This document shows positions 41,561 through 42,985 of a DNA stretch of 43,746 nucleotides, piece after piece. The notes under the pieces were generated by a model. The model saw only the letters and a program-made list of their open reading frames with translations, was not told where the DNA came from and made no database searches. The stretch's first letter is position 1. Each line of letters begins with the position of its first letter. The translations under genes and the position numbers were made by a program. Source of the DNA: a virus (taxonomy: Duplodnaviria > Heunggongvirae > Uroviricota > Caudoviricetes); the IMG/VR virus record IMGVR_UViG_2636416110_000005; one strand, given 5' to 3'.

Positions 41561-42985
41561 ATGCCAACAGTTCCAATTTCTATGAGAAAACTTAAAGAAA
41601 TTCTTAGGCTTAAATAAGGATGGGATGATACAAAACTAAAACATGCGTTCCTTCAGACCCAGGTTAAGATGAAGAAGCACTCTCTGCCTGACTGGGCTAC
41701 AGTACACCGGGAACTGCGTAATAAATGCGTGACGCTGCAGCTACTCTGGGAAGAATACTGTGAGCGTAATCCAGGCGGTTTTTACAGCTATAACCATTAC
41801 TGCCGGATGTACCGTGAATGGCTCAAAACCACTTCACCATCAATGCGTCAGGTACATAAAGCTGGCGAAAAACTTTTCGTTGATTACTGTGGACCTACCG
41901 TTGGCGTTACCGACCCTGAGACCGGAGAAATAAGAACTGCTCAGGTCATCGTAGCTGTTCTCGGGGCATCAAGTTACACATGGGCAGAGGCCACCTGGTC
42001 TCAGCAGCTTGAAGACTGGGTGATGAGTCATGTTCGCTGCTTCCAGTGGTTGGGTGGCGTTCCTGAACTTGTTGTTCCGGACAATCTGAAAAGCGCCACA
42101 TCCAGGGCATGTAAGTATGATCCTGACGTTAACCCTACCTACCAGCAGATGCTTGAGCATTATAATGTCGCAGTTTTGCCTGCGCGGCCACGTAAACCGA
42201 AAGATAAAGCCAAAGCTGAAGTTGGCGTTCAGGTTGTTGAACGCTGGATCATGGCCCGAATCAGGCATGAGATCTTCTACAGCCTTGCATCGCTTAATCA
42301 GCGCATTCGGGAGTTGCTGGAAAGACTGAATAACAAAATAATGCAGAAGTTGGGTTATTCACGTGCAGAACTCTTCATCCAGCTTGATAAACCCGCACTG
42401 AAGCCTCTTCCTGAAGCCAGTTACAGTTACACCCTGGTGAAGAAAGTCAGAGTTCATGCCGATTACCACGTGGAAATCGACAAACATTACTACTCGGTTC
42501 CATGTTCGCTGTTAGGCCAGCAACTGGAAGCATGGATCTCCGGAGAACTGGTAAGACTCTTCAATCAGGGGCAGGAGGTTGCTGTGCACCCGCGCAAGCG
42601 TACTTATGGCTACAGTACCCGCAACGAGCACATGCCTGAAGCTCATCGACAGCATGCCACCTGGACGCCAGAGCGTCTTCTGGAATGGGCGGGGCACATA
42701 GGCAGTGAAACTCATAGTTATGTGCTTCATATACTGAACTCTCGTCCACATCCGGAACAAAGCTATCGCTTCTGCCTTGGACTCCTGAACCTTCATAAAA
42801 AATACAGTAAAGCCAGACTTAATGCAGCATGTGCAAGAGCTCTGAAAACAAAGGTATGGCGTCTGTCAGGTATTAAATCGATCCTGGAAAAAGGTCTGGA
42901 TAAACAACCTGTTCAGGATCCAAAACCAGATCTGTTATCCACGATGGAACACGAAAACGTACGCGGCAGTGAGTATTACCACTGA
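41561..42985 (+). pseudogene. istA: IS21-family transposase IstA, N-terminal region disrupted
   Basis: MPTVPISMRKLKEILRLK then in-frame TAA (41615..41617), then [17 protein letters not shown] and the 438-aa ORF 41669..42985; the N-terminal HTH segment appears shortened relative to full-length IstA (from memory). Confidence 0.7.

Follow-up and report, generated by a model that had tools for sequence, protein, structure and literature searches.

The closest structurally described relatives of the ISEc12 transposase are the IstA proteins of IS5376/IS21 (PDB entries 8b4h and 8q4d), which share the domain order of intact ISEc12 IstA: HTH-1, HTH-2, DDE, β-barrel, and C-terminal region. The two are only about 20% identical in sequence, ISEc12 IstA having about 110 residues more. 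In the R1/R2 repeats, the CS2 half is bound by HTH-1, which also lies in the core of the IstA tetramer, and CS1 is contacted by HTH-2 (aa 55–104). Alanine mutants of DNA-contacting HTH residues show reduced integration; L1/L2 repeats have been described for IS21-family ends (PMC10122671). The IS21 cointegrase, which arises from an internal start, is IstA without its first 8 residues; it retains HTH-1 and is active. In an unrelated transposase family, the Inh protein of Tn5/IS50 is a programmed product that corresponds to the transposase without its N-terminal DNA-binding segment and is in principle able to poison oligomers.

Here we describe an ISEc12 copy in a 43,746-nt stretch of viral DNA from IMG/VR (hereafter the window, to which all coordinates refer unless another sequence is named). 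The window is a λ-like prophage with an integrase (20–1315), an antiterminator Q homologue, a terminase, a tape measure gene, and the tail tip gene J. At its far end lies the first 2379 bp of ISEc12 (41368–43746, + strand), a member of the IS21 family that consists of the istA transposase and the istB helper ATPase genes and was assigned by identity to RefSeq-annotated ISEc12. Outside one deletion the DNA is 100% identical to this element. In a megablast search of 5,426 complete E. coli genomes, positions 41380–43746 matched 4,626 places in 2,124 records, which RefSeq labels as “IS21-like element ISEc12 family transposase” (istA) and “helper ATPase IstB”. The uninterrupted full-coverage matches among those listed (H11–H30) are 100% identical in two blocks, with a subject span of 2,484 bp versus a query of 2,367 bp. 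By these counts, ISEc12 is present in about 1,500–1,700 of the 5,426 genomes. The intact element measures 2581 bp and is 100% identical across many loci; as the reference we used NZ_CP019271.1 381618–384198 (locus L001, in which the IS occupies 1489–4069), with IstA WP_001298859.1 and IstB WP_001016257.1.

The left end of the IS was set at 41368 by comparison with another insertion site (nfrB, in the reference locus) and with an uninterrupted J gene (strain DH5α, L034). The left terminal region (41368–41505, + strand) begins with the terminal TGCGTATT, and a repeat search found direct repeats, CATGAAAGGAGATCACT at 41378–41394 and CATCGATGGAGATCACT at 41447–41463 (+ strand), as well as an inverted copy at 41484–41505. 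Repeated GGAGATCAC motifs are also present in the left end. The direct and inverted repeats are of the kind expected for the IS21 family and, by analogy with L1/L2, are presumed to bind IstA. The right end lies beyond the window, whose last base, 43746, is also that of the istB stop codon; 85 bp of the IS remain beyond it. We read it in a sibling locus from E. coli JA65 (L040), where it runs ...AATACGCA and the termini are TG...CA. Comparison with uninterrupted J and with the JA65 locus identifies GCTTC (41363–41367, + strand) as the left copy of a 5-bp target-site duplication; GCTTC flanks the IS on both sides in JA65, with the right copy falling past the window edge. Including the part beyond the window, the whole copy with its deletion would measure 2464 bp, compared with 2581 bp for the intact element.

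Intact ISEc12 and the window copy have the same left end, the same istA–istB order, and the same istB. The two genes are separated by 11 nt. istB (42997–43746, + strand; the RefSeq start is the second ATG, at 43000) encodes a 249-aa AAA+ helper ATPase that matches PF01695 with 227 bits, is 100% identical in DNA to the reference, and scores 270 bits against NF038214 (cut-off 200) over profile positions 1–230 of 232. The original prediction, which had called istB intact and istA disrupted near its N-terminus with loss of the HTH region, is thus borne out for both genes by the profile match and by alignment to the reference, which identifies the disrupted gene as ISEc12 istA with a 117-bp deletion.

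Alignment of the window copy to the reference contains a single 117-bp gap and no further difference. Intact istA is 1542 bp long and encodes 513 aa; the window copy lacks 117 bp within istA codons 19–58, has a TAA at the junction, and differs from the reference otherwise only by the 85 bp that lie beyond the window. The deletion spans C of codon Y19 to C of codon T58, converting the reference ...AAA TAC GGT ... CCT ACA GGA TGG... into ...AAA TAA GGA TGG.... Thirty-nine codons are lost, and 40 residues, Y19–T58 (YGVGLSHRQIGRSLAISPSVVSRYANRAAQLGIKQWPLPT), are replaced by a stop. The original prediction had put the missing part at about 45 residues; the N-terminal HTH loss holds, and the size is corrected to 39 codons. 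Although 117 bp is a multiple of three, the frame is closed because the codon fused at the junction (41616–41617, + strand), TA + A, is a stop. We found no repeat or microhomology of 7 nt or more in register at the breakpoints. The nearest imperfect repeat, CTTAnnTAC, was rejected as the source of the deletion since it predicts a loss of 116 bp, not 117.

The remaining reading frame was followed by direct translation of 41561–42985 (+ strand). A Shine-Dalgarno-like AAGGA (41551–41555) lies 5 nt upstream of the istA ATG, and the 5' remnant of the gene (41561–41617) comprises 18 codons (MPTVPISMRKLKEILRLK) followed by TAA at 41615–41617; reading from the normal start thus yields just 18 residues. 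Beyond the TAA, the same frame is open to the next stop at 42983–42985. It first runs through 17 in-frame istA codons (41618–41668), corresponding to IstA residues 59–75, and no ATG, GTG, or TTG occurs in frame between the TAA and the ATG at 41669. From that ATG, the frame constitutes a 438-aa ORF (41669–42985) equivalent to IstA residues 76–513, without HTH-1. Direct translation and the ORF list thus agree with the predicted arrangement of a TAA after 18 codons and continuation of the frame into the 438-aa ORF.

To the IS21 transposase profile NF033546 (294 positions), intact IstA matches over positions 1–294; the window ORF matches only over 55–294, with positions 1–54 absent, although its score, 280 bits, remains above the cut-off of 160. 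Weak, sub-threshold Pfam matches to Sigma70_r4, the HTH of sigma-70 region 4, cover residues 10–46 of intact IstA and have no counterpart in the window ORF. The ORF keeps the Pfam domains rve and Mu-transpos_C_2 and, in terms of the known architecture, HTH-2, the DDE/rve core, the β-barrel (Mu-transpos_C_2), and the C-terminal region. In comparison with IS5376/IS21 IstA, HTH-1 is wholly missing from the window allele.

To place the deleted residues in a fold, we used an AlphaFold2 model of intact IstA (mean pLDDT 78, block means of 83–90 over residues 11–50). The best PDB fold matches of the model are IS5376 IstA, 8b4h and 8q4d (E = 3e-18), and the same chains were recovered by sequence search; matches of the N-terminal 128 aa of IstA to PDB sequences were non-significant, with E values of 0.5 or worse. 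The modelled protein has helices at residues 8–21, 25–32, and 36–48, followed, after a linker, by further helices at 84–130 that form a second unit. On this model, the deletion takes away the linker and, from HTH-1, the last part of helix 1 together with helix 2 and helix 3, the presumed recognition helix. Segment 19–58 is present in all 60 relatives aligned (59–91% identity, 507–518 aa), its mean column conservation of 0.79 compares with 0.83 for the DDE/catalytic region, and it contains eight positions invariant among these relatives. This pattern of conservation indicates that the segment is under constraint.

Together, these data support a reading in which the ISEc12 copy in J has suffered a blunt 117-bp deletion in istA, is transposase-null, and is non-autonomous; we consider this probable. 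It encodes no full-length IstA with tandem HTH-1 and HTH-2, and in place of the complete transposase of an autonomous IS its longest remaining ORF is without HTH-1. The normal istA start would give only the 18-residue peptide, and the sole possible downstream product, beginning at Met76, would be devoid of HTH-1. As judged from the architecture of the solved complex (PMC10122671), an HTH-1-less IstA should miss the CS2 half-sites and fail to build the tetramer core. The copy could then move only if IstA were supplied in trans by an intact ISEc12 and the right end were present. Possible IstA donors exist in the JA65 PacBio assembly, which has at least two further intact copies of ISEc12 (L039 and L041). 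What we conclude about lost activity and complementation is inferred from the state of istA; the description of the copy in the original prediction as immobile unless complemented is likewise an inference, since the window does not reach the right end of the IS. ISEc12 is a named, abundant, and already known element and defective IS copies are commonplace; the value of the result is one of annotation, with the copy to be flagged as non-autonomous and pseudogene-bearing, and it has little wider import.

The deleted allele is unique among the collections searched, and the difference from intact copies is not one of chance. An intact left junction was found in 43 of 43 ISEc12-bearing loci that we fetched (L001–L033 and L035–L044) and the deleted junction in none; the right junction is intact in 42, the remaining locus (L016) ending before it. 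As a positive control, a 50-mer spanning the intact left junction matched 4,251 places in 1,927 records of complete E. coli genomes, and the intact junction was also present in 32 viral contigs. The deleted junction was sought in six public collections in all, as a 50-mer by megablast or as a 31-mer by exact scan. The megablast search returned no match in complete E. coli genomes, and the junction was likewise absent from INPHARED phages, PLSDB plasmids, IMG/VR viral contigs, GTDB species genomes, and JGI metagenomes. The original prediction had named relatives with the same short N-terminus and stop–start arrangement as the observation that would speak against it; there are none among the close copies examined or the 60 relatives.

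One locus bears directly on the origin of the lesion. The bloodstream isolate E. coli JA65 has the same ISEc12 insertion in J (PacBio assembly JMJD01000003.1; L040/L045/L046), and its insertion site, the 1157-aa J fusion, and the flanking prophage are identical to those in the window. The two sequences are 100% identical over 27973–41616 and 41617–43746 (15,774 bp), and the sole difference is the 117 bp, present in JA65: there the IS is intact at 2581 bp, whereas the window copy is deleted. According to the genome announcement, each strain was sequenced and assembled twice, by Illumina/A5 and by PacBio/HGAP2, from separate DNA preparations (PMC4271156). The window thus appears to derive from a second assembly of the JA65 strain, and two assemblies of apparently one strain differ by 117 bp inside a multi-copy IS. 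The lesion is then either a private mutation of very recent date or a disagreement between the two assemblies.

If it is a discrepancy, the 117-bp gap would be an artefact of assembly or sequence processing, and the true locus would carry an intact ISEc12 as in the JA65 PacBio contig. We give this explanation a minor but appreciable chance. Apart from the near-complete identity of the two sequences and the existence of two assemblies, it is favored by the multi-copy state of ISEc12 in the JA65 genome, where short-read assemblers are unreliable, by the absence of the deleted junction from every other collection searched, and by the distribution of the J–IS fusion protein. This 1157-aa protein occurs on two contigs only among about 15 billion proteins (KEP10668.1 and EYB45347.1); KEP10668.1 is from the JA65 PacBio contig and EYB45347.1, which has an earlier GenBank protein id, from the other contig, of 0.2–1 Mb. 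Several observations argue against an artefact. No k-mer of 7 bases or more is common to the two breakpoints in register, so there is no repeat to short-cut an assembly graph. The window contains no N, its remainder is base-perfect, and a new junction in a short-read assembly normally has to be present in the reads. Conversely, HGAP correction may have overwritten a copy-specific deletion with reads from intact copies, and the link of the window to the Illumina assembly is indirect. A real deletion is our preferred reading.

Given a real deletion, the 438-aa ORF may not be silent. Translated from Met76, it could act by analogy with Inh as a trans-dominant inhibitor of intact ISEc12, drawing it into non-productive tetramers. 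The ORF retains HTH-2, the DDE core, the β-barrel, and the C-terminus, the parts that make most subunit contacts and the IstB contact in the solved tetramer (PMC10122671, PMC11208146). The ATG at 41669 is preceded, at 4 nt, by a weak AGGT, late prophage transcription through J would be expected to enter the IS, and a public gene caller favors the Met76 start even on intact copies. On the other side, Met76 is poorly kept, with Met at that position in 6 of 60 relatives only; a scan of 41300–41800 found no promoter-like site and no terminator; re-initiation 51 nt past a stop is usually inefficient; and the allele is unique, with no hint of selection. We therefore regard an inhibitory role as very doubtful. 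The parallels with shortened transposases are likewise limited: the active IS21 cointegrase keeps HTH-1, whereas the possible window product would lose 75 residues including all of HTH-1 and has an unconserved start, and Inh is a programmed product, whereas the truncation here is an accidental deletion with a putative product. The fuller scenario, in which the deletion is real and Met76–His513 IstA is made during late transcription and damps other ISEc12 copies as an accidental Inh-like allele, would be, if anything, a shade less credible still.

Protein length alone is unfit to spot this lesion. Exactly this 438-aa sequence appears in 221 blocks of a widely used public gene-call collection, which would wrongly make a truncated IstA look common. 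We rejected these records as copies of a truncated gene, since in all ten loci that we read the 117 bp is present and the 513-aa frame is open; the 438-aa call is therefore a start-codon choice by the gene caller, which places the start of ISEc12 istA at Met76 in intact genes too (L035–L044, gene 3001–4317 in each). The notion that a short N-terminus with a stop–start arrangement is the normal architecture of the subgroup, for example a programmed split gene, has these records as its sole point in favor and is already refuted, its residual probability negligible, by the ten loci, by the fetched loci (0 of 43 deleted), by the complete E. coli genomes (4,251 intact places versus 0 deleted), and by the relatives at 59–93% identity, which are 507–518 aa long and all have the segment.

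The insertion that carries the defective IS also alters the tail tip protein. The λ-type gene J, identified from the ORF list and its Pfam GpJ domains, runs into the IS (37973–41446, + strand). ISEc12 inserted 19 nt ahead of the native J stop, with the junction at 41367|41368; the native 3' end was taken from DH5α (L034) and the J lengths from cluster members. As a result, the last five native residues (GISIR) are exchanged for 25 IS-encoded residues, and the protein has 1157 aa versus 1137 aa in its native form. The Pfam domain Ig_GpJ_C matches J residues 1001–1131, placing the insertion at the end of the C-terminal receptor-binding domain. J of this prophage is thus altered at its receptor-binding C-terminus, and adsorption or host range could change if the prophage is still viable. 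The J/IS junction was not found in viral contigs and is contiguous in no complete E. coli genome.

The window ends exactly at the istB stop, as if a provirus boundary had been trimmed to the edge of a gene, and the prophage call was probably cut short by the IS. In JA65, the prophage extends past the IS with lom, genes for a 1024-aa tail fibre and for tail fibre assembly, and a resolvase/invertase gene (L040 5079–5168 and L046 16071–21072). Next to the integrase end of the window, an 835-aa ORF (1659–4166, − strand) has a C-terminal Rv2179c-like 3'–5' exoribonuclease domain (PF16473, 226 bits) and no Pfam match elsewhere. The early prophage region also contains a second IS, represented by a 437-aa ORF (10522–11835, + strand) that matches the ISNCY-family profile NF033594 with 456 bits (cut-off 250).
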